Shown piece after piece: positions 26,661 to 56,545 of a stretch of DNA of 59,060 bases. The translations under genes and the position numbers were made by a program. The DNA lies in IMG/VR virus record IMGVR_UViG_3300045996_002405, positions 1-59,060 of that record. One strand, 5' to 3'. The notes beneath the pieces were generated by a model. The model had not been told where the DNA came from. It was given only the letters and a program-made list of their open reading frames with translations, and ran no database searches. Source of the DNA: a virus (lineage: Duplodnaviria; Caudoviricetes). Each line of letters begins with the position of its first letter. Within the stretch, counting starts at the first letter, position 1.

Positions 26661-26930
26661 TCAACCGGGCTCGTGGTCGGGTGGTCGCGCCGCGGCCGGT
26701 GGTGTCACCTGGTACCCGAGGGCGCGCAGCTTCCGCACGGCGCACGCGACGTGCTGGTCGTCGACGCAGCGGCAGTCGGGCGACGGCTCGTCGGGAAAGA
26801 CCACGATCTCTCGTCGTCCCCTCGGGGACTGCTCGGCTCGGACGGGGAGACGGCCGCGGTGGTACCAGCGGTTCGCGGTCGGGTAGGACACGCCACGTCG
26901 GCGTGCCCACTCGGCGAGCGGGATCGGCAT
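26661..26930 (-). CDS. MerR/excisionase-like HTH protein resembling the IS607 TnpA N-terminus
   Basis: LAEWARRRGVSYPTANRWYHRGRLPVRAEQSPRG; no serine-recombinase domain follows. Confidence 0.65.
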   Translation of the reverse strand: MPIPLAEWARRRGVSYPTANRWYHRGRLPVRAEQSPRGRREIVVFPDEPSPDCRCVDDQHVACAVRKLRALGYQVTPPAAARPPDHEPG

Positions 26931-35243: not shown

Positions 35244-35731
35244 CGCGCGGCTTCCCGCACGGCGCGGCCCCGGGCCCGATCCCCGGCGGGTGCGCTGTCA
35301 CCGTGCGGCACAACTTCGAGGCCGCGCACCGGCTGCCCGCGCTCGGCGGCAAGTGCGTCTCGCTGCACGGCCACTCATGGTGGCTCGACGCGACCTTCGG
35401 CACGCCCGCCGACGACCCGTCGAACCCGCCGATCGACTTCGGGCAGGTCAAGAGCGCCGTGCGGCACTGGGTCGACAAGCACCTGGACCACGCGACGCTG
35501 ATTGGGGAATCCGACCCGCTGCTGCCCGCGCTCACCGCCGAGGGCTGCAAGGTCTACCGCTTCGGCCACGACTACCACGCCCGCGACCTGGCGTGGCCCA
35601 CGGTCGAAGCCGTCGCGGTGCTGGCATACCGCACTCTGCGCGTGATCGCCGCGACGCTGCACCCCGACCTGACCCTGCTGCGCGTGCGGGTGCAGGAAAC
35701 CCACACCAACGCCGTCGAGGTGCCGTCGTGA
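35240..35731 (+). CDS. queD: 6-carboxy-5,6,7,8-tetrahydropterin synthase
   Basis: FEAAHRL...KCVSLHGHS, IDFG.VK, LDH, PTVE, ET motifs. Confidence 0.95.
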   Translation: MTRGFPHGAAPGPIPGGCAVTVRHNFEAAHRLPALGGKCVSLHGHSWWLDATFGTPADDPSNPPIDFGQVKSAVRHWVDKHLDHATLIGESDPLLPALTAEGCKVYRFGHDYHARDLAWPTVEAVAVLAYRTLRVIAATLHPDLTLLRVRVQETHTNAVEVPS

Positions 35732-36531
35732 TGCGGCCGGTCGTCACCGGGCACGGCCTGGCTTGGCTGCGCGCCACCGACGCCGACGCCCGCGCGCTGC
35801 CCCCGCTGTCCGACCGGGCGACCCTGCCGCTCGCGGAGGTGTTCGGCCCGACCTGGCAGGGCGAGGGACCGCACACCGGCGTTCCGGCCCGGTTCGTCCG
35901 GCTCGGGCACTGCAACCTCTCGTGCGGCGCGGACGGCGGCACGATGCGGTGCGACACCCCGCAGACGTGGGACCACGACCGGTTCAACGTCGGCGCCGAG
36001 TGTCCGGACACCACGACGCGGGAGATCGTCGAGCGCGCTGCGGCGATCCCGGCAGCGATCACCGTTCTGACCGGCGGTGAGCCGCTGCTGCACCACCGCA
36101 GACCCGCTTTCGCCGCGCTGCTGGCGCACCTGGCCACGCTCGGTCCCGTGCACGTCGAGACCAACGGCACGATCCCACCCGCCCCCGAGCACGACTACGT
36201 GATCGCGCACTACTCGGTCAGCCCGAAGCTGACCAACACCGGCGACCCTCACCGGCGCCGCATCCGCCGCGGCGCACTCGTCGATTTCAACGACCGGCGC
36301 TCGGCGATCTTCAAGTTCGTCTGTGCCAACACGGCCGACGTCGACGAGGTGCACGACCTCGTCACCGACTGCGGACTGGACCCCGACCGAGTGTGGATCA
36401 TGCCCGAGGGCATCACCGCCGACGACGTGCTGGCCACCCACCGACTCATCGCCGACGACGTGCTGCGTCTCGGCTACCGGACCACGACACGGCTGCACAC
36501 GCTGCTGTGGGGAAGCGAGCGCGGACGATGA
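35728..36531 (+). CDS. queE: 7-carboxy-7-deazaguanine synthase (radical SAM)
   Basis: EVFGPTWQGEG, FVRLGHCNLSC...CDT, LTGGEPLL, VETNGT, VSPKL. Confidence 0.95.
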   Translation: MMRPVVTGHGLAWLRATDADARALPPLSDRATLPLAEVFGPTWQGEGPHTGVPARFVRLGHCNLSCGADGGTMRCDTPQTWDHDRFNVGAECPDTTTREIVERAAAIPAAITVLTGGEPLLHHRRPAFAALLAHLATLGPVHVETNGTIPPAPEHDYVIAHYSVSPKLTNTGDPHRRRIRRGALVDFNDRRSAIFKFVCANTADVDEVHDLVTDCGLDPDRVWIMPEGITADDVLATHRLIADDVLRLGYRTTTRLHTLLWGSERGR

Positions 36532-37154
36532 CCACCACCGCCCAGCCCGACCAGCTCGTCGACGGGCACCAGGCCGACGACGTCGACGAGGTGCTGCGCC
36601 GCGCGCACGACGGCGTCCGCGCTCTGCTGCAGCTGGCGGGGGAGGACCCCGACCGCGAGGGACTGCGCCGCACGCCGGCACGCGTCGTCGCCGCGCTGCA
36701 GGACATGACCAGCGCCCCCGGCGACCCCGCCGCGCTGCTGGGCGTGCAGTTCGAGCACGTCGACGCCGGCGGGGAGGTCGTGCAGCTCGGCCCGATCAGC
36801 TTCACCAGCACGTGCGAGCACCACCTGCTCCCCTTCACCGGCCACGTCTGGATCGCCTACCAGCCCACCGACCGGGTCGTCGGCCTGTCCAAACTCGCGC
36901 GCCTGGTCGAGCACCACGCGCGCCGCTTGCAGATCCAGGAGCGGATGACCCAGCAGCTCGTCGACGACCTCGTGACCCACCTGGCACCGGCGGGCGCGGC
37001 CGTCACCGTCCGCGCGACGCACACGTGCATGGCGCTGCGCGGCATCCGCAAACCCGGTGCCGTGATGGACACCGCCGCCCGGCGGGGGGTGTTCCGCACC
37101 GACCCGACGATCCACGCCCAGCACGCGCAGTTCGTGCAGACGCAACGACCCTGA
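36528..37154 (+). CDS. folE: GTP cyclohydrolase I
   Basis: REGLRRTPARV, CEHHLLPF.G, VGLSKLAR, RLQIQERMT, H.CM..RG. Confidence 0.97.
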   Translation: MTTTAQPDQLVDGHQADDVDEVLRRAHDGVRALLQLAGEDPDREGLRRTPARVVAALQDMTSAPGDPAALLGVQFEHVDAGGEVVQLGPISFTSTCEHHLLPFTGHVWIAYQPTDRVVGLSKLARLVEHHARRLQIQERMTQQLVDDLVTHLAPAGAAVTVRATHTCMALRGIRKPGAVMDTAARRGVFRTDPTIHAQHAQFVQTQRP

Positions 37155-42512: not shown

Positions 42513-42711
42513 CGTCGAGCCCTCCGTTCCGTGTCACAGGTGTGTGGTCTGCGTCAAGTGTGCAGGTCAGCACCGACAATGTCCCCCCTAAAACTGGCAA
42601 CCCCAGGGTTTGCGCAGCTAGACCCCGGTGGCGACGCCGGCGAGCTCGTCGACCTCGACCGAGATCCGTGGTCATCACGGCGGTCCCGTCTACCCTGATC
42701 AGCAGTCGTCG

Positions 42712-42761
42712 CCGATCTGGCTGTGGGCCGGGCGCTACCCCGACAGGAGTGCGCCCGCATG
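42712..42761 (+). promoter_or_regulatory. Late-gene leader element, copy 1
   Basis: CCGATCTGGCTGTGGGCCGGG followed by a stem covering the RBS. Confidence 0.7.
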
Positions 42762-45245
42762 ACCCTCCCCGCCGCGTGGCAGACCCAGCTCGACGCGTTC
42801 ACCGCCCGCGTCGACGACGCCGAGGTCGTCGTGTTCGACACGACACTGGCCGCGATGAGCGAGTACCTGCGGCTCGTGCGCGCCGCGGTGCTCGGCGGCC
42901 GCACCATCACCGCGGCCGCCGACGACGAGGTGCCACCGGAGCAGCTGCCCCCGAACCTCGACGCGTTCCCCCCGCCGGAGGTGTGGGCACAGCTGCTCGC
43001 CGACGGGCTGCTGGCCACCCTGGAAGCGGTGTGGGGAGAGGCGTTCGCGGCCATCGCGCGGATCGCCCCGATCGCGGTGACGCCCTACCGCGCCACGTTC
43101 GTCACCGAGGTCACCGACCGCCTCTCGCGCAACCTGTGGCCCGACGGTGTCTTCGAGGAGTGCCGCTACGAGCTGCAGGAGGGGATCGACGCAGGGGAGT
43201 CGATCAACCAGCTGCGCGACCGGCTCGGCCTGGTCCTCGGGATCGATGCGCCGTCACGCGCGGTCCGCGCGCAGATCAACGAGCACAAGCGCCGCGGTGA
43301 ACCGGTCCCCGGCGAGCTGTACGCGCAGCTGCGCGAGGCAGACCGCACCTGGCACTACTTCGCGCGCCGCATCGCCCGGACCGAAACGCTCATGGCCAGC
43401 AACGGCGGCACTCACGCGGCTGCCGTCGCCAGCGTCGACCTGCTGGGCGAGCAGCGCTGGAAGGTCTGGTACGCCACCAGCGACAACCGCGTGCGCGACG
43501 CTCACTGGCTCGCGCACGGCCAGGTGCGCGACGTGCGCGAGAAGTTCGACGTCATGGGGGAGGGGCTGGACCACCCCGGCGACCCGCTCGGCAGCGCCGC
43601 GAACGTCATCCAGTGCCGCTGCACCGAGCTGATCTTGACCACGCAGGACGAAGCCGACGAGCAGGCCGCGCGCTACGACGCCGAGCTGCCGCACCGCACC
43701 GACCCGGAAGGGGAACCGCTCGTGCCGACACCGAAGGCCACCGGCCGCAGGAGCACCACCGCCGCGGCGGTCGACGACGTCGACCCCGCCGAGCAGACCA
43801 CGCAGACCACGCAGACCCCGCTGTACTGGGAAGGGCCTCTCATGGCCCTCGACCACGCCACCGGTGACGGCAGGCTGATGGAGACGCCCAAGGACGGCAT
43901 CGTCGCGACGAACCACCCCTGGCTGTCCTGGCAGCGAGCATCGGCCTACGGCCACGACGGCAAGGTCGGTGTCGGGCGGCCCGAGCGGCTGTGGATCGCG
44001 CCGGCCGCGCTGGACGGGCAGCAGGTGCCGCACCTGTGGGGCGGCGGCACGTTCGACCCGACCGACGCCGACGCCGACACCTTCGTCGCGAAGCTGGCCG
44101 CCGGGTACGCCGGCACCGTGTCGGTCGACCTCGACCAGGCGGTCGGCGAGACGCGCTGGTTCGACCCCGAGGGCAACCAGGTCGACGAGCCCACCGAGGA
44201 CGAGTGGTGGGACTGGGCCGAGGGACAGGACATCGGCAAGGAACCCCTCGCCGTGTTCCCGCAGTGGCGGTTCGCCGGTGTCACCGGCGTGCAAGACCCG
44301 GCGTTCCACACCGGCTGGATCCAGCTCGTCAGCACGCCCTCGTCGACGGCCGACGTGTGGACCCTCGACATGACCAGCTTCACCGGGGCCCAGGCGATCA
44401 CCGCGTCGGCCGGGTCGCTGACGTGGTGCGAGCAGGTCGCCGCGCGAGCCCCCGAACAGCCGCCGGCGGCCTGGTTCCAGGATCCGCGGCTCACCGGGTG
44501 GAGCAAGCTCCGCGTGACCGATGAGGGCCGCGTGTACGGACACATCGCGCCGTGGGGCGCCGAGCACGCTTCGATCCCCGGCATGTACGTCCCCGCCGAC
44601 CCGCACGGCGGCTCCTACCCCCGGTGGCACCATCACCCGGTGCACTGCTCGGACGGGTCGGTCGTGCTGACCGGGCCGATCAGCACCGGCGGCCACGCCG
44701 ACACCGACGAGTGGACCACCCTCACGCAGGCCCAGGCGCACTACGACCGGCCCGAGTTCGTCGGGGCCGACGTCGTGGTCGGGGAGGACGCTCACGGCAT
44801 CTGGTGCTCCGGGTCGCTGCGGCCCGGCGTCACGCCGCTGCAGGTGCTCTTCCTCTCCCGCTACAGCCAGTCCGGCGACTGGCGCAACGGCGAACTGATC
44901 GCGTCGTGCGCGGTGTCCGTCCCCGCGTTCGACGCGCCGCACGACCCGAGCGTCGTCGCGCTGGCCGCGTCAGCCGGTCCTCACCGGCCCGTGCTGGCGT
45001 CGGCGCGCACCCGGTGCCGGATCGACGAGCACGGCCGGGTCGCCGCGCTCGTCGCCGCCGGCGTGCCGCGAGGACGAGCGCGGCGGACCGACCGAGCGGC
45101 CGCCGCGCTGCCCGCGACCGCCGGGTTCGACCTCATGCGCCAGCTGCGCCAGGCGCAGCGCACCGACCACCAGGTCGCGGCCGCGGCTCGCCGGATCGTC
45201 GGTGCCGGGGTCGAGGCTGCTCGTCACCGCGTCATCGGAAACTAG
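42759..45245 (+). CDS. MuF-like / capsid maturation protease fusion
   Basis: ARRIARTET, KVW.AT.D.RVR.AH...GQ, PGDP......VIQCRC (MuF), then TGDGR, VSVDLD, GRVYGHIA and SGDWR. Confidence 0.88.
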   Translation: MTLPAAWQTQLDAFTARVDDAEVVVFDTTLAAMSEYLRLVRAAVLGGRTITAAADDEVPPEQLPPNLDAFPPPEVWAQLLADGLLATLEAVWGEAFAAIARIAPIAVTPYRATFVTEVTDRLSRNLWPDGVFEECRYELQEGIDAGESINQLRDRLGLVLGIDAPSRAVRAQINEHKRRGEPVPGELYAQLREADRTWHYFARRIARTETLMASNGGTHAAAVASVDLLGEQRWKVWYATSDNRVRDAHWLAHGQVRDVREKFDVMGEGLDHPGDPLGSAANVIQCRCTELILTTQDEADEQAARYDAELPHRTDPEGEPLVPTPKATGRRSTTAAAVDDVDPAEQTTQTTQTPLYWEGPLMALDHATGDGRLMETPKDGIVATNHPWLSWQRASAYGHDGKVGVGRPERLWIAPAALDGQQVPHLWGGGTFDPTDADADTFVAKLAAGYAGTVSVDLDQAVGETRWFDPEGNQVDEPTEDEWWDWAEGQDIGKEPLAVFPQWRFAGVTGVQDPAFHTGWIQLVSTPSSTADVWTLDMTSFTGAQAITASAGSLTWCEQVAARAPEQPPAAWFQDPRLTGWSKLRVTDEGRVYGHIAPWGAEHASIPGMYVPADPHGGSYPRWHHHPVHCSDGSVVLTGPISTGGHADTDEWTTLTQAQAHYDRPEFVGADVVVGEDAHGIWCSGSLRPGVTPLQVLFLSRYSQSGDWRNGELIASCAVSVPAFDAPHDPSVVALAASAGPHRPVLASARTRCRIDEHGRVAALVAAGVPRGRARRTDRAAAALPATAGFDLMRQLRQAQRTDHQVAAAARRIVGAGVEAARHRVIGN

Positions 45246-45257
45246 GGAGTACCGAAA

Positions 45258-45668
45258 ATGTGTTGCGGACAGACCCCCCGAACCTCTCCGACGCTGCTCG
45301 CGGCCGCCGTACCGGCCGGTACCCGCGACGACGGACAGTGGCGCGTGACCTACCCCAACGGCCGCGAAAGGCTGTTCGACGCCGAGTGGCAGGCCAAGGC
45401 GTCGCAGGCGGTCGCGGGCGGCACCGTCGAGCGCGTCGAGCAGCCCGCGGCGGAGGAGACGACCGCCGCGGCGGAGGTCGACGGCGGCGCGTCGACGTCG
45501 ACGACCGAGGGCGACCAGGTCGCCGACGCGGCCACGCGGACGCTCGCCACGTCCTCGACGACGACCGAGCAGCAGTCCGCGCCGGACAAGTCCGCTGGCA
45601 AGCGTCCGCGCGGCCGCACCTCGACGACGCGCAAGCGCGGCCCGCGCAAGCCCCCGGCGACCAGCTGA
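45258..45668 (+). CDS. Small protein (MCCG start) between protease and capsid genes
   Basis: RBS GGGAG; position conserved in cluster-B-like head modules. Confidence 0.6.
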   Translation: MCCGQTPRTSPTLLAAAVPAGTRDDGQWRVTYPNGRERLFDAEWQAKASQAVAGGTVERVEQPAAEETTAAAEVDGGASTSTTEGDQVADAATRTLATSSTTTEQQSAPDKSAGKRPRGRTSTTRKRGPRKPPATS

Positions 45669-45745
45669 TCGTCAGCTATTCTTCGAGCTGATCGCCCCCC
45701 GTGACCTCGCCAGGAGTCCCCGGGGTCACGGGGGGCGACACCGCA

Positions 45746-45810
45746 CCGATCTGGCTGTGGGCCGGGTGCACGTCCGTACATCACGACGTGCACTAGGAGT
45801 GCCCCGCATG
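45746..45810 (+). promoter_or_regulatory. Late-gene leader element, copy 2
   Basis: Identical 21-mer CCGATCTGGCTGTGGGCCGGG upstream of the major capsid RBS. Confidence 0.7.
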
Positions 45811-47802
45811 AATTTCCTCGACGAGCTGATCGACGCCGTCTGCGCATCCGAGCTGGTGGGCGACGAGCTGGTCGCATCCGTGCGCCAGCTCATCCAGGCC
45901 AACCAGGACGGCGACACACCCGCCGACCTGGCCGAGCTGGAGCAGGCCGCGGTCGCCGCGTTCCAGCAGCGCTACAACGACGGCGAGTACGACCCCGTCG
46001 ACGCGCCGGTCCTGATCGGCCTGGACGCCGTCACCGGCGCCGTGCGCGCCGAACTCGCGGAGCAGCAGACCCAGCAGGACGCGCTCGACGCGCAGCTGCA
46101 GGGGCTCGCCGACCGCGTGCTGTCCCCGGACGCCGAGGGGGACGACGACAGCGGGGACGACGACCAGGTCGACCCCGACGACGACCCCGACGACGACCAG
46201 GTCGACGGAACTGGCAGCGACGGTGACGACGCCCCGACCGCGCCGCCGGCCGAGTCCGCGCTGCAGCCCGCGTCGCGACGCCGCGCGCCGATGACCTCGC
46301 GCGCCACCCAGCAGCACCGCCTGGACCGCAACGGCGGCCGCAAGCGCACCGGCGCACCGGCGACCGGCGGCCGCGGGGCGCTGCGTCGGATGAGCATCAC
46401 CGCCGCGGCGGACGTCCCCAACACCCCGACCGGCTCGTCGCTGACCCTGCGCCAGCTCGCGGAAGCCAGCATCCGAAAGTTCGGCCAGATGCCGATCGGC
46501 ACGAAGAACGCCTACGTCCGCAGCTCGCTCGCGGTCGTGCGACGGGAGACCGACGCGTCCCTGGTGGCATCCGGTGGCCGCGACGACGTCGAGCTGGTCG
46601 ACCGGATCGCCAACGAACGCAACTTGCCCGGCGGGTCGCTGCTCGCGGCGCACCGGCGCGCGGTCACCGCCGCGGCGTCGACCGGCACGTTCACCTACGG
46701 CGGGATGTGGTGCGCGCCGTCGGAGACGGACTACACGCTGTGCCCGCAGCTGGCCACCGAATCGGGGATGCTCGACCTCCCCACGATGACCGTGACGCAC
46801 GGCGGGCTCCGCTACCCGGTCACCAACGAGTACCCCGACCTCGGGTACGACCAGTACTTTCGCGAGTACGACGAGAACCACGTGTTCGACCCCGAGGACC
46901 CCGACTCGTTGAAGCCCTGCATCTCCGGGTTCTGCCCGGAGTGGGACGAGGTCCGGTTGAAGGCCCGCCCGCTGTGCATCATGGGCGACATTTTGAAGGA
47001 CCGGGCGTGGCCCGAGCTGGTCGAGCGGTTCATGTCCGACGTGATGATCAAGAACGCGCACTGGATGAACGCGAACTACCTCGCGTACATCGCGTCGCGG
47101 TCGGACCAGGTCGCCTCGTTCTCCGCGCAGACCGGCCAGTTCGGCATCGGCAGCGCGTCGTTCGCGATCGCCGACCGGATCGGCCTGCTCGTCACCTGGT
47201 TCCGCAACCTGTACCGGATGGACCCCGGCGCCACCCTGGAAGGTGTGGCGCCGATGTGGCTGCTCGACCTGTTGAAGGCCGACATCGCCAAGCGGAGCAA
47301 CCGCAACAGCACGGCCGTGTCGACCGCCGAGGTCGACCAGGTCTTCACCGAGCGCGGCGCGCGGATGCAGTGGGTCTACGACTGGCAGTCCGACGCGCTG
47401 GGCGCGGCGAAGGTGTCCGTCCCCAACCCGGACGCCGGACAGCCCGGTCAGCCCGCGACGCTGCAGAGGTGGATGCCGCCGGCGACGTGGCCGACCTCGG
47501 CGACGCTGATGTTCTACCCGGCGGGGAGCTGGGTCCTGGGCCAGCAGGACATCATCACCCTCGACGCGGTGTACGACTCGACGAACCTGCGGCAGAACAT
47601 CTTCACCAGGCTGTTCACCGAGGACGCGTACCTGCTGCTGAACCGCTGCGGCCGCTCGTTCAAGATCACCGTGACCGACCTGTGCGCGAACGGCGCGCTC
47701 GGTCCGTTCCGCGACGCGTGCCCGCCCGCGCTGCCCGCCGTCCCCGGCGCGACCGAGGACGCGCCGCTGTTCACCAGTGAAGTCGCGGCGGCCACGCCGT
47801 GA
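45808..47802 (+). CDS. Major capsid hexamer protein (N-terminal scaffold-like domain)
   Basis: ITAAADVP, GGMWCAPSET.Y, GMLDLP, KPC, WPELV, QWVYDWQ, YDST.L..N..T.LFTED motifs. Confidence 0.9.
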   Translation: MNFLDELIDAVCASELVGDELVASVRQLIQANQDGDTPADLAELEQAAVAAFQQRYNDGEYDPVDAPVLIGLDAVTGAVRAELAEQQTQQDALDAQLQGLADRVLSPDAEGDDDSGDDDQVDPDDDPDDDQVDGTGSDGDDAPTAPPAESALQPASRRRAPMTSRATQQHRLDRNGGRKRTGAPATGGRGALRRMSITAAADVPNTPTGSSLTLRQLAEASIRKFGQMPIGTKNAYVRSSLAVVRRETDASLVASGGRDDVELVDRIANERNLPGGSLLAAHRRAVTAAASTGTFTYGGMWCAPSETDYTLCPQLATESGMLDLPTMTVTHGGLRYPVTNEYPDLGYDQYFREYDENHVFDPEDPDSLKPCISGFCPEWDEVRLKARPLCIMGDILKDRAWPELVERFMSDVMIKNAHWMNANYLAYIASRSDQVASFSAQTGQFGIGSASFAIADRIGLLVTWFRNLYRMDPGATLEGVAPMWLLDLLKADIAKRSNRNSTAVSTAEVDQVFTERGARMQWVYDWQSDALGAAKVSVPNPDAGQPGQPATLQRWMPPATWPTSATLMFYPAGSWVLGQQDIITLDAVYDSTNLRQNIFTRLFTEDAYLLLNRCGRSFKITVTDLCANGALGPFRDACPPALPAVPGATEDAPLFTSEVAAATP

Positions 47803-48695
47803 CCTCGTCGCTCGCCCCCCGCGTCCGCGTTCCCGCGGCCGCGGGGGGCGCTCCCACCCGCCACGGCCTGTTCGGCGCGGCGAACCTCGTCGAGGGCCTG
47901 GACGATCACGCGCTGCACGGCGTCGAGTACGACGCGCTGTGCGGCGTGCCGGTCGACCTGTGGCCGATGCCGTGTCCGGGTAGCGCGATCCCACCCGCCT
48001 ACCAGAACGTCACCAAGGACCCGCGACGCTCGCTGGCCGGGGTCTACGCCGACCCGTTCGCGGTGTACGCGGCCGAGGACTGCAGCGCCGTCGGCCGCCA
48101 GCTCGACGAGGCTCGGACGCAGCTGCGCACGCGCCTGACCCTCGGCGAGCAGGCCACCGTCGAGCGCACGGTGTGGACCGGGGAGGTCGGCAACACACCA
48201 GCGCTGACGGTCGGCGCGACCGTGCTGCGCGGCGGTGACGCCGTCCAGCTCCCCGACGCTCTGGGCCTGCTCGAACTGTGGCTGGCCACCGTCACGGGCG
48301 CGACGGGCACCATCCACGCCCCGCGCTGGCTCGCTCCGCGGCTGGCGATGGACTCCTGGCTGAACACCTCCGGAGCGCGGGCCACGACTCCGCTCGGGAC
48401 GACGTGGGCGCTGGGCACCGGCTACCCCGGCACGCCGCCGATCACCGACCCCGTCACCGTCGACGACGGCGCGCTGTGGCTGTTCGCGACCCCGCCGGTC
48501 ACCGTGCGCCGCTCCGGGATCGTCGAGCCCGCCGACTGGCAGAGCGGCTCGTTCACCACGCGCACGAACGGCGCGTATCTGCTGGCCGAGCGCGTGTACG
48601 TCGTCGACTGGCCGTGCAACAGCGCGGCCGTGAAAACCACCCTCACCCGCGCGGACTACGTCGCGCCCGAACCACCCGAGGAGCCGCTGCCGTGA
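47799..48695 (+). CDS. Major capsid pentamer protein
   Basis: HGLF, GVEY, PFAVY...CS..G, EQ..VE, TPLGT.W..G.GY, AER.YVV...C; coupled to the hexamer gene. Confidence 0.8.
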   Translation: MTSSLAPRVRVPAAAGGAPTRHGLFGAANLVEGLDDHALHGVEYDALCGVPVDLWPMPCPGSAIPPAYQNVTKDPRRSLAGVYADPFAVYAAEDCSAVGRQLDEARTQLRTRLTLGEQATVERTVWTGEVGNTPALTVGATVLRGGDAVQLPDALGLLELWLATVTGATGTIHAPRWLAPRLAMDSWLNTSGARATTPLGTTWALGTGYPGTPPITDPVTVDDGALWLFATPPVTVRRSGIVEPADWQSGSFTTRTNGAYLLAERVYVVDWPCNSAAVKTTLTRADYVAPEPPEEPLP

Positions 48696-49684
48696 CCGCA
48701 CCCGCACCCGTGCTGGAACCGTCCGCTCTCTGCGTGAGCTACATCGGCGCTCGACGAGGTCGTGTGACCCTCGTCGACCGGTGTGGCCGCGTGCAGTACG
48801 GCCCGAAGTCGATGGCCAGCTTCAAGGGCTTCACCGAGGTCGAGATTTCCCCCGAGGTCGAAGAAGGTGAGGACTACTCGCAGCGCGACATCGACGGCGA
48901 GTGGTGCGTGGTCGGCAAGGGGGAAGACTCCGTCAAGTGGTGGTCGGTGAAGATCACTTTCTGCAAGGTCGACGCCGACGTCTTCCACATGATGAACCGC
49001 GCGTGGCGGCTCAACCTGAACGCGCAGGGCAAGACCAGCGGCGTCCGGATGGGCCAGAAGATCAGCAACGACCTGGGTTTCGCACTGGAGCTGTGGCCGA
49101 AGCTGGCCGAGGGCGGCGGGGGCGTGTGCGACGACGAGGACGCGCCGGCCGACGTCGACCCGTCCGGGTACCTGCTGCTGCCGTGGTGCGTGAGCATGGC
49201 CCCGGACAGCTGGAACCTGGCCAACGGTGTGGCCACGTTCGCGCTGAACGCCCGCACCCGCGCCGGTTCGCGGTGGGGTGTCGGCCCCTACGACGTCGTG
49301 CGCCAGGTGGACGGCACGCCCGGACCGCTGCTCGTCCCGATCGACTCCGGCCGGACCGGTACCGACCCCGACCTGGTCATCACCGACGTGGTCGACGTCG
49401 CCCCGCCGCCGGTGATGTGCGGCGCACAGCCGCTGTCCAACCCGCTCGGTCCGGCGTTCACCGTCGAGACCGTCGACGGGCAGCCGCTGCAGCGCGAGTT
49501 CACCCCACCCGCCACCGGCGGCCCGTACTCCCTCGACCCCGGCGACGGCTCCGCCGCGGTGACCCTGCCGACCGCCGGGCTGGTCCACACCTACGCGGCC
49601 GCGGGCGTCTACGCCCCGTCGGTCTACCCGACCGCCACACCGGGCCGCGTCACCTTCCAGCTCGTCGAGGTGACCGCGACGTGA
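48692..49684 (+). CDS. Major tail protein with C-terminal PKD-like domain
   Basis: RVT.VD.CG, EEGED, FCKVD, GFALELW, GYLLLPW, WGVGPYDV; HTYAAAGVY tail. Confidence 0.88.
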   Translation: MTAPAPVLEPSALCVSYIGARRGRVTLVDRCGRVQYGPKSMASFKGFTEVEISPEVEEGEDYSQRDIDGEWCVVGKGEDSVKWWSVKITFCKVDADVFHMMNRAWRLNLNAQGKTSGVRMGQKISNDLGFALELWPKLAEGGGGVCDDEDAPADVDPSGYLLLPWCVSMAPDSWNLANGVATFALNARTRAGSRWGVGPYDVVRQVDGTPGPLLVPIDSGRTGTDPDLVITDVVDVAPPPVMCGAQPLSNPLGPAFTVETVDGQPLQREFTPPATGGPYSLDPGDGSAAVTLPTAGLVHTYAAAGVYAPSVYPTATPGRVTFQLVEVTAT

Positions 49685-50085
49685 TGACCCGCCGGCCGGT
49701 CGCTGCAGTGCCCGCGCACGCCGTGCGGACGCTGCAGCGCGTCATGTCCGTGATCTGGACGGTCGCGGGGATCGCGCTGACCTGCGTCGTGCTCGGATCG
49801 CCGCTGACCGCGTTCGATCCGCCGGTGCGGGTGCTGGTGGGGTCGCTGTGCATCGTCAGCGTGGCGGTCATGCCGCTGCGCGCCCTGGCTCCGGAGCTGC
49901 GGATCTTCGCGTCGTGGCCGCTGCAGTTGATCGGCGGGTGCTCTGTCGCCGCGTCGGTGATGAGCCTGTTCAACGCGGCCGACACGACGTGGAGCGTCGC
50001 GCGCGTCGGCTGGGCGCTGCTGCTCCTCTCCCTCGCCGCGGTTGCGTACCTGCACCAGGTGGGGGAGCGGGTGTTTCTGAGGTGA
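49684..50085 (+). CDS. Membrane protein (4 TM), lysis-associated
   Basis: Hydrophobic segments; upstream of the lysin. Confidence 0.6.
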   Translation: MTRRPVAAVPAHAVRTLQRVMSVIWTVAGIALTCVVLGSPLTAFDPPVRVLVGSLCIVSVAVMPLRALAPELRIFASWPLQLIGGCSVAASVMSLFNAADTTWSVARVGWALLLLSLAAVAYLHQVGERVFLR

Positions 50086-50237
50086 CCAAGCTCGTCGAAT
50101 CGCTGATCAGTGCCGGTGTGGGCGTCGTGGCGTCCCTGCTGGTGACCTACCTGCAGCACCGGCTCACGCAGCGGTTGAAGCGTCACACCCCGCCGTCGAT
50201 CGAGATCGTTCCGCCTCCCCCGAAGGACGAGCCGTGA
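50082..50237 (+). CDS. Small 1-TM protein
   Basis: GTGA coupling on both sides. Confidence 0.5.
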   Translation: MTKLVESLISAGVGVVASLLVTYLQHRLTQRLKRHTPPSIEIVPPPPKDEP

Positions 50238-50545
50238 CCGAGTACACCGTGATTCCCGACCCCGACCCCGACCCGACCACCCCCCGCGCGGGGCCGCTGC
50301 GCAGCGAACCGGTGGTGGTCAGCAACTCGATCGCGCTGATCGTGATCGTGCTCGCCACGCTGCTGCCGCAGCTCGGCGTCAACCTGCCCGCGGCCTGGGA
50401 CTGGCTCCTGGGCGCGCTCGTCGCCGGTGGCTCGCTCACCGGCGCGACGGTCGTCGCCCGCCGCCTGGCGACACCGGTCGTCGACCCGCGCGACAACACC
50501 GGTCGCCGCCTGGTCCCCGATCAGTCCCCCCGATCGGGAGCGTGA
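50234..50545 (+). CDS. Holin-like protein (2 TM)
   Basis: RSEPVVV...TM...TM...ARR..TPV.DPRD..G pattern; adjacent to the lysin. Confidence 0.65.
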   Translation: MTEYTVIPDPDPDPTTPRAGPLRSEPVVVSNSIALIVIVLATLLPQLGVNLPAAWDWLLGALVAGGSLTGATVVARRLATPVVDPRDNTGRRLVPDQSPRSGA

Positions 50546-50548
50546 GCC

Positions 50549-51628
50549 GTGGAGACCAGAGGGATCGACGTCTTCCGGATCTACCAGCAGGTGCGCGACT
50601 GGCAGGCCGTGCGGGCATCCGGCGTCACCTACTGCTGGGCGAAGGCCACCAACGGAACCCGGATCGCGTTCGGCAACGACGCAGCCCGCACGCCGGCGCC
50701 AGCGGATCCGACGATCGAGGGAGCACGCAGCGCCGGGATCGCCCCCGGCGTTTACGGCTACGCGCTGCCCGGTGACCCGATCGCGCAGGCCGACGTCCTG
50801 GCGAACGAAGCACTCCGGCTCCGCTGCGTCGGCCCCGGAACGCTCCCGCCCGCCCTCGACCTCGAAGAGCCCGGCACGAAGTCGGCGGACTTCGCGGTCA
50901 GGTTCTTGCGTCGACTGCAGGAGCGCACCGGCCAGCAGCGCGTCGCGATCTACATGAGCGCGTCGTGGGCCGCCGAGCTGCGTCCAGACACCTGGAACGT
51001 GCCCGGTCTGATCATCTGGATCGCCTCCTACGGCCCGAACAACGGCGGCCGGCACCCGATCCCCTACTACTCCGGCCGGACCGACGTGCACCAGTTCACG
51101 TCGGTGGGGCTGGGCCTGGTGCGGGGCATCACCTCGTCGGGGCTCGACGTCAACGACGCCGAGATCCCGCTGCACGTCCTACTCGGAGAGGAAGACGACG
51201 ACATGCCGATCACCGATGACGACGTGGCCAAGATCGCCCGTGCGACGGTGGACCAGCTGTGGTTCCGCACGCCGGTCGCTGGCCCGCACGGCGACAACCC
51301 CGGCAACGTCAACGACCACGTGTACTGGGACAACCAGAACATCTGGAAGATCCCCGGCATCGCGGACAAGATCGACGCGATCGGGGAGGTCCTCGCGCAG
51401 CTGGCCGAGCGCGACGACCAGGTCGTGCTGAGCCCCGAGCAGTTCGAGGCGCTGCGCGCTCAGGTCGGATCGTCGATCACCGACCAGCTCGACGACCAGC
51501 TGATCGACCTGGCCGAGCGCCTGGCGGGTCGGGACCGGGCAGCGATCGAGCAGGCGTTGCGCGAGTTCTACGGCCGCGCGGTCGTCACGCCGACGCCGGT
51601 CGGTGACCTCGTCGAGCAGGCGACCTGA
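50549..51628 (+). CDS. Endolysin, GH25 muramidase
   Basis: GIDV, DW.AV, AKATNG, PPALDLEE (DxE), WIASY, HQFTS, LDVN. Confidence 0.9.
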   Translation: METRGIDVFRIYQQVRDWQAVRASGVTYCWAKATNGTRIAFGNDAARTPAPADPTIEGARSAGIAPGVYGYALPGDPIAQADVLANEALRLRCVGPGTLPPALDLEEPGTKSADFAVRFLRRLQERTGQQRVAIYMSASWAAELRPDTWNVPGLIIWIASYGPNNGGRHPIPYYSGRTDVHQFTSVGLGLVRGITSSGLDVNDAEIPLHVLLGEEDDDMPITDDDVAKIARATVDQLWFRTPVAGPHGDNPGNVNDHVYWDNQNIWKIPGIADKIDAIGEVLAQLAERDDQVVLSPEQFEALRAQVGSSITDQLDDQLIDLAERLAGRDRAAIEQALREFYGRAVVTPTPVGDLVEQAT

Positions 51629-51631
51629 TCC

Positions 51632-52474
51632 GTGGCCCGCGCCTTCGCTCCCGACAACACCTGGGCCATGCCCGAGGGCGACGGGCCCTGTGCGACGTGG
51701 CCGCTCGCGGGCTGCTCCGAGTTCCCGGACGACGTCACGGCGTGGGACGAGCTGATGTACGTCTCCGTCGAGGTCGCGACGGAGCTGCTGTGGCGGCTGA
51801 CGGCCGGTCGGTACGGGCTCTGTGAGGAGACCGTGCGGCCGTGCCGTCGGGCACCGCGCGCGATGACCGGCGTCGCCGACGGCGCCGGATGGATGCCCGT
51901 GCTCGACGACGGGCGCTGGCTGAACCTCACGTGCGGGTGCCCGCGCGAGGTCCTGCGCACCGGGTGCGGCTGCGACGACGTCCCGCAGGTCCGACTTCCG
52001 GGGCCGGTGACGCTCGACGACGCGCACCCGATCACGGTCACCGTCGACGGCGTCGTGCTGCCGTCGACGGCTTGGCGGCTGGACGAGCCGGGCTGGCTGG
52101 TGCGCGTCGACGGGCAGCGCTGGCCACTGCGGCAGCGCCTCGACCAGCCGACGACCGCCGAGGGAACGTGGTCGATCACCTACTGGCGCGGCACGCCGGT
52201 CCCGATCGCGGGGCAGATGGCTACCGCTCGGTACGCGGCGGAGTGGTGGCGCAGTTGCACCGGGCAGGACTGCGCGCTGCCGAAGCGCGTGCAGACGATC
52301 TCCCGGCAGGGCGTCACGTACACGCTGATCGACCCGCGCGACTACCTCGACGCCGGCCGGACCGGTGTGTCGGCGGTCGATCAGTGGTTGGCGGCGGTCA
52401 ACCCCGACTCCCACCGCGAACCGTCGGCCGTGTACTCCCCGGACGCGGCCCGGTACCGGCAGGCGAGGTCGTGA
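51632..52474 (+). CDS. Head-to-tail adaptor
   Basis: ATELLW.LT..RYGLC..TVRPC, C.LP.RV..ISRQGV, GRTG...VDQWL.AVNP. Confidence 0.8.
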   Translation: MARAFAPDNTWAMPEGDGPCATWPLAGCSEFPDDVTAWDELMYVSVEVATELLWRLTAGRYGLCEETVRPCRRAPRAMTGVADGAGWMPVLDDGRWLNLTCGCPREVLRTGCGCDDVPQVRLPGPVTLDDAHPITVTVDGVVLPSTAWRLDEPGWLVRVDGQRWPLRQRLDQPTTAEGTWSITYWRGTPVPIAGQMATARYAAEWWRSCTGQDCALPKRVQTISRQGVTYTLIDPRDYLDAGRTGVSAVDQWLAAVNPDSHREPSAVYSPDAARYRQARS

Positions 52475-53004
52475 CCACGCCCGCGCCGCAGAGCACCGAC
52501 CGCATGATCTGGCCGGTGCTCTCGGCACTGCGTGTGTGCGTCGGCGTCGAGCTGGCCAGGATCGGACGCCCGGTGTGCCGCTTCCCGCTCGTCTGGGGTG
52601 CGGATCGCCCACCGGCCGACGACTGCGACTGCAGGTGCGCCGACGGCGGGCAGGGCACGGCGTGGGGCCGCTGGGTCACCGCGGCGCAGACACCGTCACC
52701 GGCGGCGCGTGCGGACTGCTCAGGGGGCTCGTGGGGCGTGCAGGCCGAGTTCGGGGTGTACCGCTGCTATCCCGTGCTCGACGACGACCTGGCCGCCCCG
52801 GCGGAAGCGGTGGTCGACCTGGCCACGCGGGGGCTGCTCGACGACCTGGCCGCGCTGCGGCGCGCGATCCGCTGCTGCGCATATCTGGCCGACCACGACA
52901 TCGGCTGGTCGTTCGTCGCGGCCGCGCCGCTGGAACCCCGGGGAGGCTGCGCCGGTGCGGTGGTTCAGATCAGGTTCGACCGGACCGAGTGCAGATGCCC
53001 GTGA
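52471..53004 (+). CDS. Tail terminator / head-tail connector-like protein
   Basis: GTGA coupling; GVYRC, P.GGC.G motifs; hairpin at 53012-53048 follows. Confidence 0.65.
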   Translation: MTTPAPQSTDRMIWPVLSALRVCVGVELARIGRPVCRFPLVWGADRPPADDCDCRCADGGQGTAWGRWVTAAQTPSPAARADCSGGSWGVQAEFGVYRCYPVLDDDLAAPAEAVVDLATRGLLDDLAALRRAIRCCAYLADHDIGWSFVAAAPLEPRGGCAGAVVQIRFDRTECRCP

Positions 53005-53369
53005 GGTCGAGGAGCCCCGCCCGGGGAACACGTGCCCGGGCGGGGCTCGACTCACACGGACCAGACCGCAGGAGCGTCTTAGCGTGACGGTGACCCCGTG
53101 GTGCTCGACTCCTTGGCTCCGCTGACCGCCCGACCACCCAGCTAAGGCGCGGGCGGGGCGGTGACTTTCACGGTCGGGATGGTCCGCCCGCACACCGTAG
53201 ACCAACGAAGATCACTAAAGTGAGGCCCACATGACGGACGACACGTCTACCGCTCATCCGGAGCAGCGCGCAGAGCCCTACGACGTCGACTGGCCGGTGT
53301 GCTACCGCGACCCGCACGACGGCCGCGCCTACCCGCCGGGCACGTGGCACTGGTCACCGAGGATCTGAC

Positions 53370-53669
53370 GTGGTCACCCGACTGCGCGTGCGCGCGAACG
53401 CGACGATCGCCGGGATCGGCGAGCACGGGTCGCAGTGGTGGTGCGACGACAGCCCCACCGTGCGGCTTCTGGCCCGCACGCGGCAGCTGACGATCCTGGA
53501 CCAGGTCGACGACGAGGACGAGGGGGAGACCGGTGTCCCGAGCACGGATCGAGATCAACGAGTCGGCGGTGGCGGAGCTGCTGACGGGTCCGACGGGGCC
53601 GATCTTCCGGCAGGTGGAGAACTGGACCACCCGGACGACGACGCTGGCCAAGACGCGAACGCCGGTTGA
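53370..53669 (+). CDS. Small hypothetical protein (3' end overlaps the next gene)
   Basis: N-terminal half looks protein-like; RBS GAGGA upstream. Confidence 0.4.
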   Translation: MVTRLRVRANATIAGIGEHGSQWWCDDSPTVRLLARTRQLTILDQVDDEDEGETGVPSTDRDQRVGGGGAADGSDGADLPAGGELDHPDDDAGQDANAG

Positions 53670-54033
53670 CGAGGGTCGGCTGCGCGCGTCGCTGCAGGGC
53701 ACGGTCCGGGTCGAGGGGCTGCGGGTCATCGGCCGCAGCGGCTCCGACGTCGAGTACGCCCGGTACGTCCACGACGGAACCGGGGTCTTCGGTCCGCGCG
53801 GGACGCCGATCGTGCCGGTCACCGCCAAGGCGCTGGTGTTCGAGCCCGGTCGGATGATGGGGCCGCTCCCGCGTGGTGTGCGCGGGCGGGTCACCGGCGC
53901 GGCACGCGGCGAAAACTCGAAGTGGGCCGGCCTGGTGGTGACGAAGTCCGTGAAGGGCAGCCCACCGAACCCGTTCCTGCTGTCCGCACTGGAAGACGTC
54001 GTGCCCTTCCCGGTCAACCGGCGGGGCGCGTAG
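53533..54033 (+). CDS. HK97 gp10-like tail completion protein
   Basis: TPVDEGRLRAS, VEYARYVHDGT, V.G..PNPFL..AL. Confidence 0.85.
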   Translation: MSRARIEINESAVAELLTGPTGPIFRQVENWTTRTTTLAKTRTPVDEGRLRASLQGTVRVEGLRVIGRSGSDVEYARYVHDGTGVFGPRGTPIVPVTAKALVFEPGRMMGPLPRGVRGRVTGAARGENSKWAGLVVTKSVKGSPPNPFLLSALEDVVPFPVNRRGA

Positions 54034-54150
54034 CGTCGCGAACGGCCCCCCTGGCTGCCCCCAGGAGGGCCGTTCGCGTTCTCGGCGGGTGACCACCTGG
54101 GGGAAGCGCTGCTCGACCGTTCTGGTGCTGCTCGGCCGTACTCTCCGGCC

Positions 54151-54903
54151 ATGACGCAGCGCATCGAATTCAGCAGCCCGGTCCGCAAGGCGCGCCAGGC
54201 GCGGCCGATCACCGTCGACCTGTACGGCAAGCACGAGATCGTGCTGCAGCGCCCGAAGGACGCCGTCCTGTTCTTCGCGTCCGTCGCCGGGGCCGACAAC
54301 GCCAGCAGCGGCGACCGGGCGGCCGCGATCATCCAGTTCGTCAACGGCGCGACGGAGCCGGTGCAGCAGCAGAAGTTCTGGCAGCTCGCGATCCGGGGTG
54401 AGCTGAACCTGCAGGCGACGGTCGACCTGATCACCGCGGCGACGACCCGCTGGCAGCACTGGGACGCGAAGAACACGGCCCCGATCCGGATCACGTGGAC
54501 CCCGTCGGCGGCCGAGTACGAGCCGGTCGAGGTGGTGAACGAGGACCTGGACCTGCACCTGGTGTGCACCCCGCCGACCGACCTGATCCTGACCTGCGTG
54601 GCCGCCAGCATGGCCAGCAGCGCGAGCGAGGCCGATCAGGCGTGGGGCATCGGCATGTTCCTCGACGCCGCGCTGTCGCCGGCCGACGGCATGGTCGTCT
54701 CCCAGCGGCTCCGGAGCCTGAACGGCGATCTCGAACTGGAGGACGTCGGCGAGATCGTCACGCGGCTGATCGACGTGTGGAAGCCGACGTCGAACCGCGA
54801 CGGACGGCGTGCCGCGCAGAAGAAGCCCGCGGCGTCCACCGCCCGCCGGCAGAGCGCCGGTCGCGGCACCGTGCGTCGCACCCCGGCGAAGCGAGCGCGG
54901 TGA
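54151..54903 (+). CDS. Tail assembly chaperone
   Basis: Position upstream of the TMP; two similar halves; TACTCT -10 just before ATG. Confidence 0.6.
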   Translation: MTQRIEFSSPVRKARQARPITVDLYGKHEIVLQRPKDAVLFFASVAGADNASSGDRAAAIIQFVNGATEPVQQQKFWQLAIRGELNLQATVDLITAATTRWQHWDAKNTAPIRITWTPSAAEYEPVEVVNEDLDLHLVCTPPTDLILTCVAASMASSASEADQAWGIGMFLDAALSPADGMVVSQRLRSLNGDLELEDVGEIVTRLIDVWKPTSNRDGRRAAQKKPAASTARRQSAGRGTVRRTPAKRAR

Positions 54904-55556
54904 CCGGTCCGCTCCGTGCCAGCTCGACCGGCCTGCCCGCCGAGCTGCCGCTCACGGTCGTCGTCGACGGCGTCGAGATCGAGATACCCGACCTGCCCGC
55001 GCGGGTGTGGGTGGACGCGCTCACCCACGAACCGCCCGGATGCTGGTGGAAGCTCATCCCTGAACAGCTACACGACACCGACGCTGACCTGCTGATACAG
55101 CGGGTGCTCGACTCCGCCGACGCGTTCGACCTCGACGACCTCGAAGACCTCGCCGTCGAGGTGCTGACGGCCGTGCTGGGCTGCGACCTGTGGGCCGCGC
55201 GCCGGCTCGTGCTCAGTGCGTGGTCGAACTGGTTGCACTTCGACGGCTGGTGCGTCACCCGGGGACTCGACTCCCTGCTGACCGGGCACCCCGCGCGGAT
55301 CGTGTCCGCGGCCTGGGCGTGGCGGCTGTCGATGTGCCAGAAGAAATCCGAAGTGACGGCGCTGGAATCGGAGGTCTGGTCACCCGACCGGCCCGACCGC
55401 GCGTCCGGCCGGCCGCGCGACGCCGCGCCGGAGGGATGGGACGACCAGGCCGAGGGCGGCGCGTTCCTCGCGGCGATGGGACAACTCGGGTCCAGCCGTC
55501 GACGTCAAGCGCAGCAGGCCGCGCTCGCTGACCAGGAACCCGCAGAAGTGCGGTGA
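54900..55556 (+). CDS. Second tail assembly chaperone
   Basis: GTGA coupling; W.A.RL...W..FDG...RG.D pattern. Confidence 0.6.
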   Translation: MTGPLRASSTGLPAELPLTVVVDGVEIEIPDLPARVWVDALTHEPPGCWWKLIPEQLHDTDADLLIQRVLDSADAFDLDDLEDLAVEVLTAVLGCDLWAARRLVLSAWSNWLHFDGWCVTRGLDSLLTGHPARIVSAAWAWRLSMCQKKSEVTALESEVWSPDRPDRASGRPRDAAPEGWDDQAEGGAFLAAMGQLGSSRRRQAQQAALADQEPAEVR

Positions 55557-55794
55557 TCCGTGTCGGTGGTGCGCGCTAGTCTGCCCCGGTCCCCGCTCAT
55601 GGGGGGTGCTCCGCAGGTCGAAGAAGTTCGGCCGCTGTAGTCGTCCCCGCGCAAGCGGGGCTTGCGTCGACCCCGTGTCGACGAGGATCGCAACTCTGTC
55701 TGTCACTCGGGCGAGGTCAGCACGGTCAGCACGAAGAAGCCCCGGCGAGCACGGCTCGCCGGGGCTTCACCCGTTTCGACAGGGCGCTGATCGG

Positions 55795-56097
55795 CTACGC
55801 GGATCCGGGGTCGTCGACGTCAACGGGCACGAGTTCGCGGAGCTGCACGACGAGCGGATCCAGCACGGCGAGCATCTGCGCGGCCACCGTGCCCGCGTCG
55901 CGCGCGAGCGACCCGAGGCGGACGAGCGTGGTTCCGATGAGCAGCTGCACCTCGTCGTCGGCACCGCTGCGGAGCAGCTCGCCGGTGAACGCGTGGCAGC
56001 GCGCGCAGTAGCCGAAGCGCACGTCTTCCGGGTGCGGGCTGCTCGTGCCGCACAGCGGGCACGCGAACGTCGTCGGCGTCTCCGGGTGCGCGGTCAC
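55795..56097 (-). CDS. Small zinc-finger protein
   Basis: FACPLCG.SS.HP.D...GYCARCHAFT; hairpin at 55735-55768 downstream. Confidence 0.65.
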   Translation of the reverse strand: MTAHPETPTTFACPLCGTSSPHPEDVRFGYCARCHAFTGELLRSGADDEVQLLIGTTLVRLGSLARDAGTVAAQMLAVLDPLVVQLRELVPVDVDDPGSA

Positions 56098-56348
56098 AGG
56101 GCGTCCCAGCACGACCAGAGCGTCGAGTCCTCGACCCCGTGGACGAGCTGCACCGGCATTCCGAGCACGGTCGGCCTGGCGCTCAGGTAGGCGTCCCAGT
56201 CCAGCGGCACCGGTCGACCGGACTCCGCCAGGAGCCCGCCGACCTGCTGACGGGTCAGACGGATCGGGCCGTCGAACGGCGGTCGGTGCTGCTCGGCGCT
56301 GCGCTGCGTCAGGTGTCCCACAGCGGTGATCAGCATGTTCGTCAGCAC
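56094..56348 (-). CDS. Hypothetical protein
   Basis: G-rich RBS before GTG; coupled to the zinc-finger gene. Confidence 0.5.
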   Translation of the reverse strand: MLTNMLITAVGHLTQRSAEQHRPPFDGPIRLTRQQVGGLLAESGRPVPLDWDAYLSARPTVLGMPVQLVHGVEDSTLWSCWDAL

Positions 56349-56491
56349 GGTCCCCCCCTCTCTGCGGTGGTGGTGGTCGTGTGCACGGTAGCTGTCCACT
56401 GCCGGACACAGCACGGGTTCGGATCATCCCCGCGCGCGGGACCAGGGCGTACGACCACCCGCGCTCTATGCTGGCCGTCGAGTAGCTGCTG

Positions 56492-56545
56492 CCGATCTGG
56501 CTCAGGGCCGGGCACACGATCCCGTAGGGGAGGTGTGCCCGCTTG
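56492..56545 (+). promoter_or_regulatory. Late-gene leader element, copy 3
   Basis: CCGATCTGGCTCAGGGCCGGG plus CGGGCACAC/GTGTGCCCG stem around the RBS of the TMP. Confidence 0.7.

Follow-up and report, generated by a model that had tools for sequence, protein, structure and literature searches.

To our knowledge, late gene control in actinobacteriophages is essentially uncharted. Among phage signals, lambda boxB has a 5-bp stem and a 5-nucleotide (nt) loop, HK022 put needs no phage protein to act on RNA polymerase, and the immunity repressor binds the stoperators, immunity-specific DNA sites of 13 bp that are asymmetric and number ~20-30 per genome. In phage Mu, the mom mRNA carries a hairpin by a stem that sequesters the Shine-Dalgarno (SD) sequence, and binding of Com opens the ribosome-binding site (RBS). 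Actinobacteriophages also carry leader repeats, namely SAS, ESAS and other cluster-specific repeats, for which an explanation is still wanting and none of which extends beyond a single cluster. SAS and ESAS are conserved short repeats in the leaders of Cluster K mycobacteriophages (PMC3203893) with an analogue in Cluster EF (PMC7302621); in the accessible parts of both reports their function is not established and a factor from the host or the phage is suspected. PMC3203893 also mentions the cluster A mycobacteriophage stoperators. Here we analysed a complete IMG/VR virus record (IMGVR_UViG_3300045996_002405; 59,060 bp, ~71% G+C, direct terminal repeats), hereafter the window, which is the genome of a temperate soil actinophage, and describe a short hairpin, CTGGC-loop-GCCGG, that recurs in the leaders of its virion genes. 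This leader hairpin was not described in the literature searched, with many subscription papers and image supplements outside the search, and it is a real element that had probably gone undescribed until now.

The hairpin resembles SAS and ESAS, as these are presented in the accessible part of PMC3203893, in being a short conserved sequence that stands in one orientation in the leaders of a subset of genes and is absent from host genomes, and, like ESAS, it lies upstream of the RBS as an imperfect inverted repeat whose spacer varies. However, according to the same part of that report, SAS is a 13-bp sequence (5'-GGGATAGGAGCCC) that overlaps the RBS right before the start codon, whereas the hairpin ends 21-89 nt (median 31) upstream and is free of an SD; ESAS has 17-bp arms separated by a 4-13 bp spacer and lies directly upstream of SAS, whereas the arms of the hairpin comprise 5 (at most 6-7) nt and its loop 5-7 nt. 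Moreover, SAS and ESAS appear there as cluster-specific and mostly tied to non-structural genes, whereas the hairpin stands behind a -10 box on virion genes across clusters and host genera. In Rfam the element would be filed as a cis-regulatory leader; a comparison with this database, proposed in the original prediction made from the window alone, matched no family, with Rfam 15 giving 0 matches at the gathering score in the window and 11 matches at E up to 10, none of them over the motif. The promoter SD13 of phiSASD1 was considered and dismissed as a different element, being, in the accessible part of PMC13722658, the promoter of the sigma-factor gene of an unrelated phage. Motifs are not mentioned in the accessible part of the Samy prophage paper (PMC11302927), nor motifs or promoters in the term-searched text of the Gordonia phage survey (PMC5559632).

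In the window, the 21-nt motif CCGATCTGGCTNNGGGCCGGG has exactly three matches, all on the plus strand and with 0 mismatches outside its NN positions, which agree with each other at 19 of 21 positions (Table 1). Shuffled sequences lead one to expect 0.09 matches, and three or more copies occurred in 0 of 100 shuffles. The claim of the original prediction that the motif precedes the genes of the MuF-protease, the major capsid protein and the tape measure protein was thereby borne out. Degenerate extra copies were not found, as the 15-nt core with up to 3 mismatches gave 63 matches in the window, compared with 66.75 expected. Hairpin A consists of the arms CTGGC and GCCGG plus a flanking T.G, and folds at -8.0 kcal/mol when copy 1 is isolated. 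A second helix, stem B, can form between the 3' part of the motif with its following bases and the bases just before the start codon; the bases assigned earlier to the two helices were present in all three leaders, and stem B appeared in the minimum free energy (MFE) folds of copies 1 and 3. The folding energies of the whole leaders were ordinary for copies 1 and 2 (z -0.8 and -1.4), and leader 3 stood out (MFE -29.8 kcal/mol, z -3.2, 2 of 200 shuffles). The additional capsid-leader hairpin that had been noticed in the same prediction competes with the inner portion of stem B. Between a 136-aa open reading frame (ORF) and the capsid leader lies a further, very stable stem-loop, which lacks a T-run and has AGGAG inside its loop; judging from the predicted fold, it may act as a terminator or as a structure at the 5' end of the capsid mRNA.

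Table 1. Coordinates of the leader features and of other genes in the window
Feature	Position	Strand	Remarks
-10-like hexamer TACCCT, leader 1	42691-42696	+	20 nt 5' of CTGGC; fits family-wide TANNNT position
Motif copy 1	42712-42732	+	arms CTGGC 42717-42721 and GCCGG 42727-42731; loop TGTGG
Stem B, leader 1	42729-42757	+	CGGGCGC 42729-35 / GCGCCCG 42751-57; encloses SD AGGAG 42745-42749; in MFE fold
MuF-like/capsid maturation protease fusion gene	42759-45245	+	ATG; Pfam Phage_Mu_F 2.6e-8; PHROG 859, 18402
TATTCT, sole -10-like hexamer 5' of leader 2	45677-45682	+	68 nt before hairpin, outside usual 10-26 nt
Very stable stem-loop	45692-45738	+	-41.4 kcal/mol, z -6.5, 0/200 shuffles
Motif copy 2	45746-45766	+	arms 45751-45755 and 45761-45765
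Extra capsid-leader hairpin	45766-45793	+	GTGCACGTC 45766-74 / GACGTGCAC 45785-93; in MFE fold
Stem B, leader 2	45763-45806	+	CGGG(T)GCAC 45763-71 / GTGCCCCG 45799-806; 3' arm just 5' of ATG 45808
SD AGGAG, leader 2	45795-45799	+	
Major capsid protein gene	45808-47802	+	phrog_777 major head protein 5.6e-109
-10-like hexamer TATGCT, leader 3	56467-56472	+	24 nt 5' of hairpin
Motif copy 3	56492-56512	+	arms 56497-56501 and 56507-56511; loop TCAGG
Stem B, leader 3	56509-56541	+	CGGGCACAC 56509-17 / GTGTGCCCG 56533-41; encloses SD GGAGG 56529-56533
Tape measure gene	56543-59059	+	TTG start; phrog_305; runs off window end
Tape measure gene, second piece	1-723		phrog_305, matched by both pieces
Tyrosine integrase	7248-8690	-	basis for temperate call
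Cox-like gene	26661-26930		basis for temperate call
TerS	37251		
TerL	37849		
Portal gene	39918		

Comparison with other genomes indicated that the 15-nt core CTGGC-loop-GCCGG is a family-wide leader element and not private to the window phage. In distant relatives retrieved with the capsid protein as the only query, the core CTGGCTNNGGGCCGG stood 5' of the capsid gene, and its carriers are dozens of phages and prophages of actinobacteria, for example Gordonia phage Tiamoceli and prophages in Streptomyces-family genomes, with capsids only ~30% identical to each other. A pattern scan of viral contigs returned at least 123 loci, and among the matches listed ~35 show the same architecture as judged by eye; the exact 21-nt motif had 0 matches in these contigs. 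Within 27 viral records chosen from the scan, 82 core matches with no more than 1 mismatch were counted, compared with 17 for a backwards control pattern, and the copies, 1-9 (mostly 1-6) per record, were nearly always co-oriented. The arm pattern precedes the capsid gene at 45 of the 124 capsid-anchored loci whose 5' region is intact; ~10 of these 45 look like coding coincidences when read by eye. Mycobacteriophage PG1 has the same module order without the hairpin: its capsid leader (L296, ~9640-9754) is homologous to the L238 and L250 leaders downstream of the hairpin and degenerate at the hairpin position, which suggests that the hairpin was lost in the cluster B1, PG1 lineage.

Several further arrangements were observed among the relatives. 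In Microbacterium phage MementoMori (L435), the tape measure gene alone is preceded by a hairpin variant; its early genes have another and longer repeat, ccggattaggcg...tatagagtaggcgttagccaaacacc, which stands 5' of gp16, gp44, gp56 and gp62, looks like a promoter and is presumably the Cluster EI repeat mentioned in the accessible part of PMC7302621. In some metagenomic relatives, the promoter-plus-hairpin cassette occurs in 2-3 tandem copies before one capsid gene (L063 9848-9895, L064 2351-2398, L065 3572-3693 and L009 3601-3664). In another genome (G009), the capsid and major tail genes diverge from one 100-bp region and each has a separate hairpin in its own orientation, at 18144 (-) and 18242 (+) (L232/L233).

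The ORFs downstream of the hairpin were assigned in two sets, one of 56 and one of 28 from covariance-model matches and prophages, together 84. Major capsid proteins (phrog_777) accounted for 18 of 56 and 9 of 28, major tail proteins (phrog_792) for 15 and 8, and tape measure proteins for 7 and 5 in the two sets, respectively; the rest were endolysins (2 and 0), proteases or MuF-type proteins (1 and 1), ParB-like (1 and 0) and minor tail (0 and 1) proteins, PHROGs of unknown function (6 and 2) and ORFs without a match (6 and 2). Hairpin genes almost always encode a major capsid, major tail, tape measure, protease or lysin protein. Tiamoceli (NC_053211.1) is an example in a cultured phage, where the genes annotated as major head, major tail and endolysin each follow a copy; the three copies precede gp21, gp24 and gp39.

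The position of the hairpin relative to promoters and start codons was parsed over 70 copies, 55 of which are non-redundant. A TANNNT hexamer ends 10-26 nt (median 17) 5' of the hairpin in 43 of the 55 copies, compared with 0, 2 and 2 of 55 in three controls, and would place the motif in the transcript of a sigma-A-type promoter. A purine after T or C, often as TAG, recurs 6-8 nt past the hexamer, which is the expected start-site position. The start codon follows the hairpin at a median of 31 nt (interquartile range 28.5-37, range 21-89), in an interval that holds the SD, which the motif itself does not. Since the motif lies downstream of the -10 boxes, it should be transcribed under standard promoter geometry. 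The -10 boxes that the original prediction had seen upstream of each copy were confirmed for copies 1 and 3 (20 and 24 nt), but for the capsid copy the nearest such hexamer is 68 nt off, with the strong hairpin in between.

The variation of the hairpin itself was followed in 103 leader-context matches. Exact arms were present in 73 and CTGGT, a change of C to U opposite G, in 17; this is the only recurrent change in the CTGGC/GCCGG arms, which are otherwise invariant, the fixed U.G pair included. Other single arm changes occurred at most 4 times each, inside the background of 4-22 from reversed or swapped-arm controls, and these controls gave 0 exact matches. The loop is 5, 6 or 7 nt long and variable in sequence, although its 3' GG is mostly kept; in one Gordonia group U6 is replaced by C opposite G10, and a weak GCYG flank is the only other conservation around the hairpin. 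A true DNA palindrome (CTGGC/GCCAG) was not found among these matches. Because the arms are invariant, the loop length varies and the recurrent change is wobble-compatible, the variation favours an RNA hairpin read by its sequence over a dimer-bound DNA site, and the conserved leader element with hairpin A that was foreseen from the window gains comparative support from the same changes. Three other readings of the sequence were dropped: a likeness of copy 3 (GATCTGGCTCAGG) to the 5' end of 16S rRNA, since the two loop bases vary freely among the copies; a link between the TGT/UGU loop and the phage queuosine genes, for the same freedom of the loop bases; and an alternative small helix CCGC/GNGG, common in MFE folds, which needs non-conserved loop bases.

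Stem B was evaluated in 44 non-redundant leaders. The 3' half of the motif plus 9 nt paired with its own pre-start sequence at -12.79 kcal/mol and with those of other leaders at -11.61 kcal/mol (permutation p = 2e-4), the variable parts alone gave -5.42 for own and -4.38 for cross pairs (p = 2e-4), and coding-sequence and upstream control segments showed no own-pairing excess (p > 0.5 beside the first of these contrasts, p > 0.3 overall). Across 12 whole genomes, pairing of the pre-start 14 nt with GGGCCGGG reached -7.54 for the 42 genes with a hairpin and -6.43 for 854 further predicted genes (p = 0.004). The claim that stem B changes its sequence but keeps its pairing was supported across leaders, but not within genomes, where own and cross pairing did not differ significantly (p = 0.10), and the stem B of the window pairs no better than cross pairs do. 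In 31 of 44 MFE folds, 50% or more of the SD is paired, and in 30 of 44 its partners belong to the hairpin A region. Immediately 5' of the start codon, several relatives carry CCCGG(C), the perfect complement of the hairpin 3' arm, and several others, such as Tiamoceli, have no stem B. A different topology was seen in four capsid leaders (L255/L258/L286/L353), which use the same arm sequence as window copy 3: CGGGCAC pairs with GTGCCCG directly after hairpin A across a 3-nt loop, not beyond the SD. When hairpin A was enforced in folding models of the three window leaders, SD accessibility stayed unchanged (0.25 vs 0.26, 0.14 vs 0.21 and 0.26 vs 0.26). Stem B and hairpin A overlap by only 2-3 nt, and in copy 1 a 4-bp inner hairpin coexists with stem B. 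Stem B is real in the window and only a modest tendency family-wide; given the weak within-genome pairing, the short overlap, the SD that stays unopened and the leaders without it, we read it as a lineage-specific helix that may damp translation, and not as the conserved core of the element. The predicted probability of an unpaired SD in the window, 0.71 for capsid, 0.37 for MuF and 0.21 for tape measure, matches the expected protein demand and fits the role in stoichiometry that had been suggested.

A common reader of the hairpin was sought by phylogenetic profiling. All-against-all clustering of 2,201 ORFs found no non-structural family in all 12 motif-bearing genomes, and a ParB-like family was present in 9 of 12; the window proteins with counterparts in the 11 other genomes, 22-48% identical, serve the virion or packaging, and ParB-like and queuosine genes recur there in a patchy manner. 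With no common non-structural protein, host machinery or a virion-module protein is the most likely partner, and since small disordered proteins would escape BLAST-based profiling, a small protein invisible to BLAST may be added to these candidates. Three host genomes contained 0-1 exact motif copies. Covariance-model matches were present in 24 of 121 genomes of the Streptomyces sp. 130 family; the leader-type matches were all of the CTGGTT form, lay only in prophage clusters, several of them in same-strand groups, and the identified ORFs after them encode virion proteins (capsid, tail and tape measure), whereas the remaining matches lie inside coding sequences, for example for WLWAE and WLRAG. 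By these genome scans, the hairpin is not a host regulon. Matches of the model to the conserved host coding sequence ...YGSWLWAEHQG... (L408, L410-L413 and L415, Streptomyces-family) point to a source of false positives in any scan with this short model.

Collectively, we favour, at about even confidence, a conserved late-gene leader hairpin that acts at the RNA level through a common factor, combined with gene-specific masking of the SD in the window phage. Host RNA polymerase would start late transcription at a sigma-A-type promoter, and each copy would form the 5' leader of such a transcript; with a start ~7 nt past TANNNT, the hairpin would come ~4-19 nt from the 5' end. The element would be an RNA hairpin, 5'-CUGGC-(N0-2)UNNGG-GCCGG-3' with the fixed U.G pair, that is read by sequence, and its reader, common to all these phage-host pairs, would most likely be host RNA polymerase, ribosome or RNase, or a virion-module protein. 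The hairpin may in this way tag the mRNAs of capsid, major tail, tape measure, protease and lysin so that they are expressed at a high level or at a given time. The window phage and some relatives would add a second layer, in which the G-rich 3' half, together with the bases that follow, pairs with a C-rich stretch that separates the SD from the start codon; this stem B would damp translation gene by gene, capsid least and tape measure most, which would help to set stoichiometry. Several results weigh against such a model. Hairpin A by itself is thermodynamically ordinary (z -0.9), and just 4 of 44 MFE folds contain it in full; no full compensatory double change was seen in its arms, so the structure draws its support from wobble-compatible changes and loop-length variation. 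The transcription start site is placed by geometry for every copy, and a -10 box is missing at the usual spacing from the window capsid copy. Many loci were collected with the motif as search key, which makes the invariance partly one by construction, and PG1, with the same module order and no hairpin, shows the hairpin to be dispensable in its lineage. The profiling of the 12 genomes found no trans factor, and own pairing of stem B within genomes was not significant.

Other explanations were weighed against this model. The mutually exclusive translational switch of the original prediction, in which GCCGGG can belong to either hairpin A or the SD-hiding stem B and the RBS is freed once a phage protein occupies hairpin A, in the way that Com acts on mom mRNA, is unlikely: all three window leaders can form stem B with G14-G16 of hairpin A, and the CCCGG(C) tracts, the enriched pre-start pairing and the SD pairing partners within hairpin A all speak for it. 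However, enforcing hairpin A raised the SD unpaired probability in 0 of 3 window leaders, so that the Com-type feature of stem B is there in the window yet the SD is predicted to stay paired; in copy 1 the overlap is just 2-3 nt and the inner hairpin is present together with stem B, Tiamoceli-type leaders have no stem B, and the within-genome test was not significant. As for a phage protein that would flip the putative switch, no family outside the virion module is common to the 12 genomes; no Com-like protein was found, and the targets are many where Com has one. Considerably less probable is a DNA operator, that is, a repressor or activator bound to the double-stranded motif just 3' of late promoters in the manner of cluster A stoperators. 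Like stoperators, the sites are short, oriented, repeated, intergenic and would affect expression; they are invariant and promoter-adjacent with several copies per genome, and many carriers, like the window phage, are temperate or proviral, so strong late promoters would need silencing. Unlike stoperators, the hairpin has 1-9 copies before late genes, an inverted-repeat form and a variable loop, and it crosses clusters; its arms form no true DNA palindrome (CTGGC vs CCGGC, with no CTGGC/GCCAG form), their spacing of 5 to 7 bp differs from a fixed-length duplex site, the common C to U change keeps RNA pairing while it alters one half-site only, and the same site is kept across ~30%-identical capsids without a shared regulator, as immunity-specific operators are not. 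That the motif has no special function and the three copies are recent duplicates of one promoter-leader cassette agrees with their identity at 19 of 21 positions, but is already contradicted by the comparative data, as the core is kept in the same context across ~30%-identical phages while the flanks diverged completely, and is very improbable.

Three explanations at the RNA level differ from the favoured one in what the hairpin would do or bind. Antitermination, in which a nascent-RNA hairpin loads a factor as nut/boxB does, or acts on RNA polymerase as put does, and late terminators are read through, is an improbable account. The CUGGC/GCCGG hairpin with its 5-bp stem, 5-nt loop and 15 nt in all has the geometry of lambda boxB and is likewise small and promoter-proximal, with one copy close behind each promoter; strong terminator-like hairpins lie in late regions (for example 45692-45738 and upstream of the L033 copy), and the want of a common phage protein fits direct action on host RNA polymerase. 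In contrast to lambda nut and HK022 put, however, no boxA-like companion motif or N-like gene was seen for the element, its sequence is unrelated, its tight spacing to the start codon and the pre-start complementarity are unexpected for a purely transcriptional signal, and separate capsid, tail and tape measure promoters make read-through less needed. Improbable to a slightly greater degree is a 5' stabiliser or processing determinant, which would block or direct RNase E/J and give long-lived capsid and tail mRNAs; it agrees with a hairpin near the expected 5' end, with the tie to the most abundant virion proteins and with an element that can be internal, as in the window capsid copy, where processing would define the 5' end. 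Such a stabiliser needs structure and not invariant sequence, though, the expected 4-19 nt of single strand would precede the hairpin, and tape measure and lysin are not high-abundance products. The hairpin may instead be a direct RNA ligand of conserved actinobacterial machinery without any phage protein, as a put-like RNA polymerase modifier or a 30S or RNase decoy, which we consider a minor possibility; if true, it would explain the invariance of 15 non-coding nt across clusters and host genera (Gordonia, Streptomyces-family and probably Microbacterium) despite ~30% protein identity.

The phage of the window has no close cultured relative, the closest capsid among cultured phages being 33% identical; capsid homologues at 62-65% identity are known (P0002-P0004), and a blastn search of INPHARED with the window returned short capsid-gene matches of 70-78% only. 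DNA contigs from three soil runs yielded only small identical pieces or spurious fragments, with no variation in the leaders. The tape measure gene spans both record ends, which indicates that the record is circularly permuted or terminally redundant as assembled. A gene set at 33544-37154, just 5' of the terminase, encodes a DpdA-like queuine tRNA-ribosyltransferase, a QueD-like protein and a GTP cyclohydrolase, and its content suggests 7-deazaguanine DNA modification. A ParB-like gene lies at 32969-33574.

On present sequence evidence, the hairpin is probably a control signal for late gene expression. It differs from earlier leader repeats of actinobacteriophages in being tied to the virion-gene module and not to a cluster, survives ~30% capsid identity and different host genera, marks the same small set of late genes, and varies as would an RNA hairpin whose sequence is recognised. 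Its presence in cultured, BSL-1 SEA-PHAGES phages, such as Tiamoceli on Gordonia terrae, makes its function directly testable. If host machinery is the reader, the hairpin would be a portable expression signal for Actinobacteria and an entry point to late gene control in their phages.

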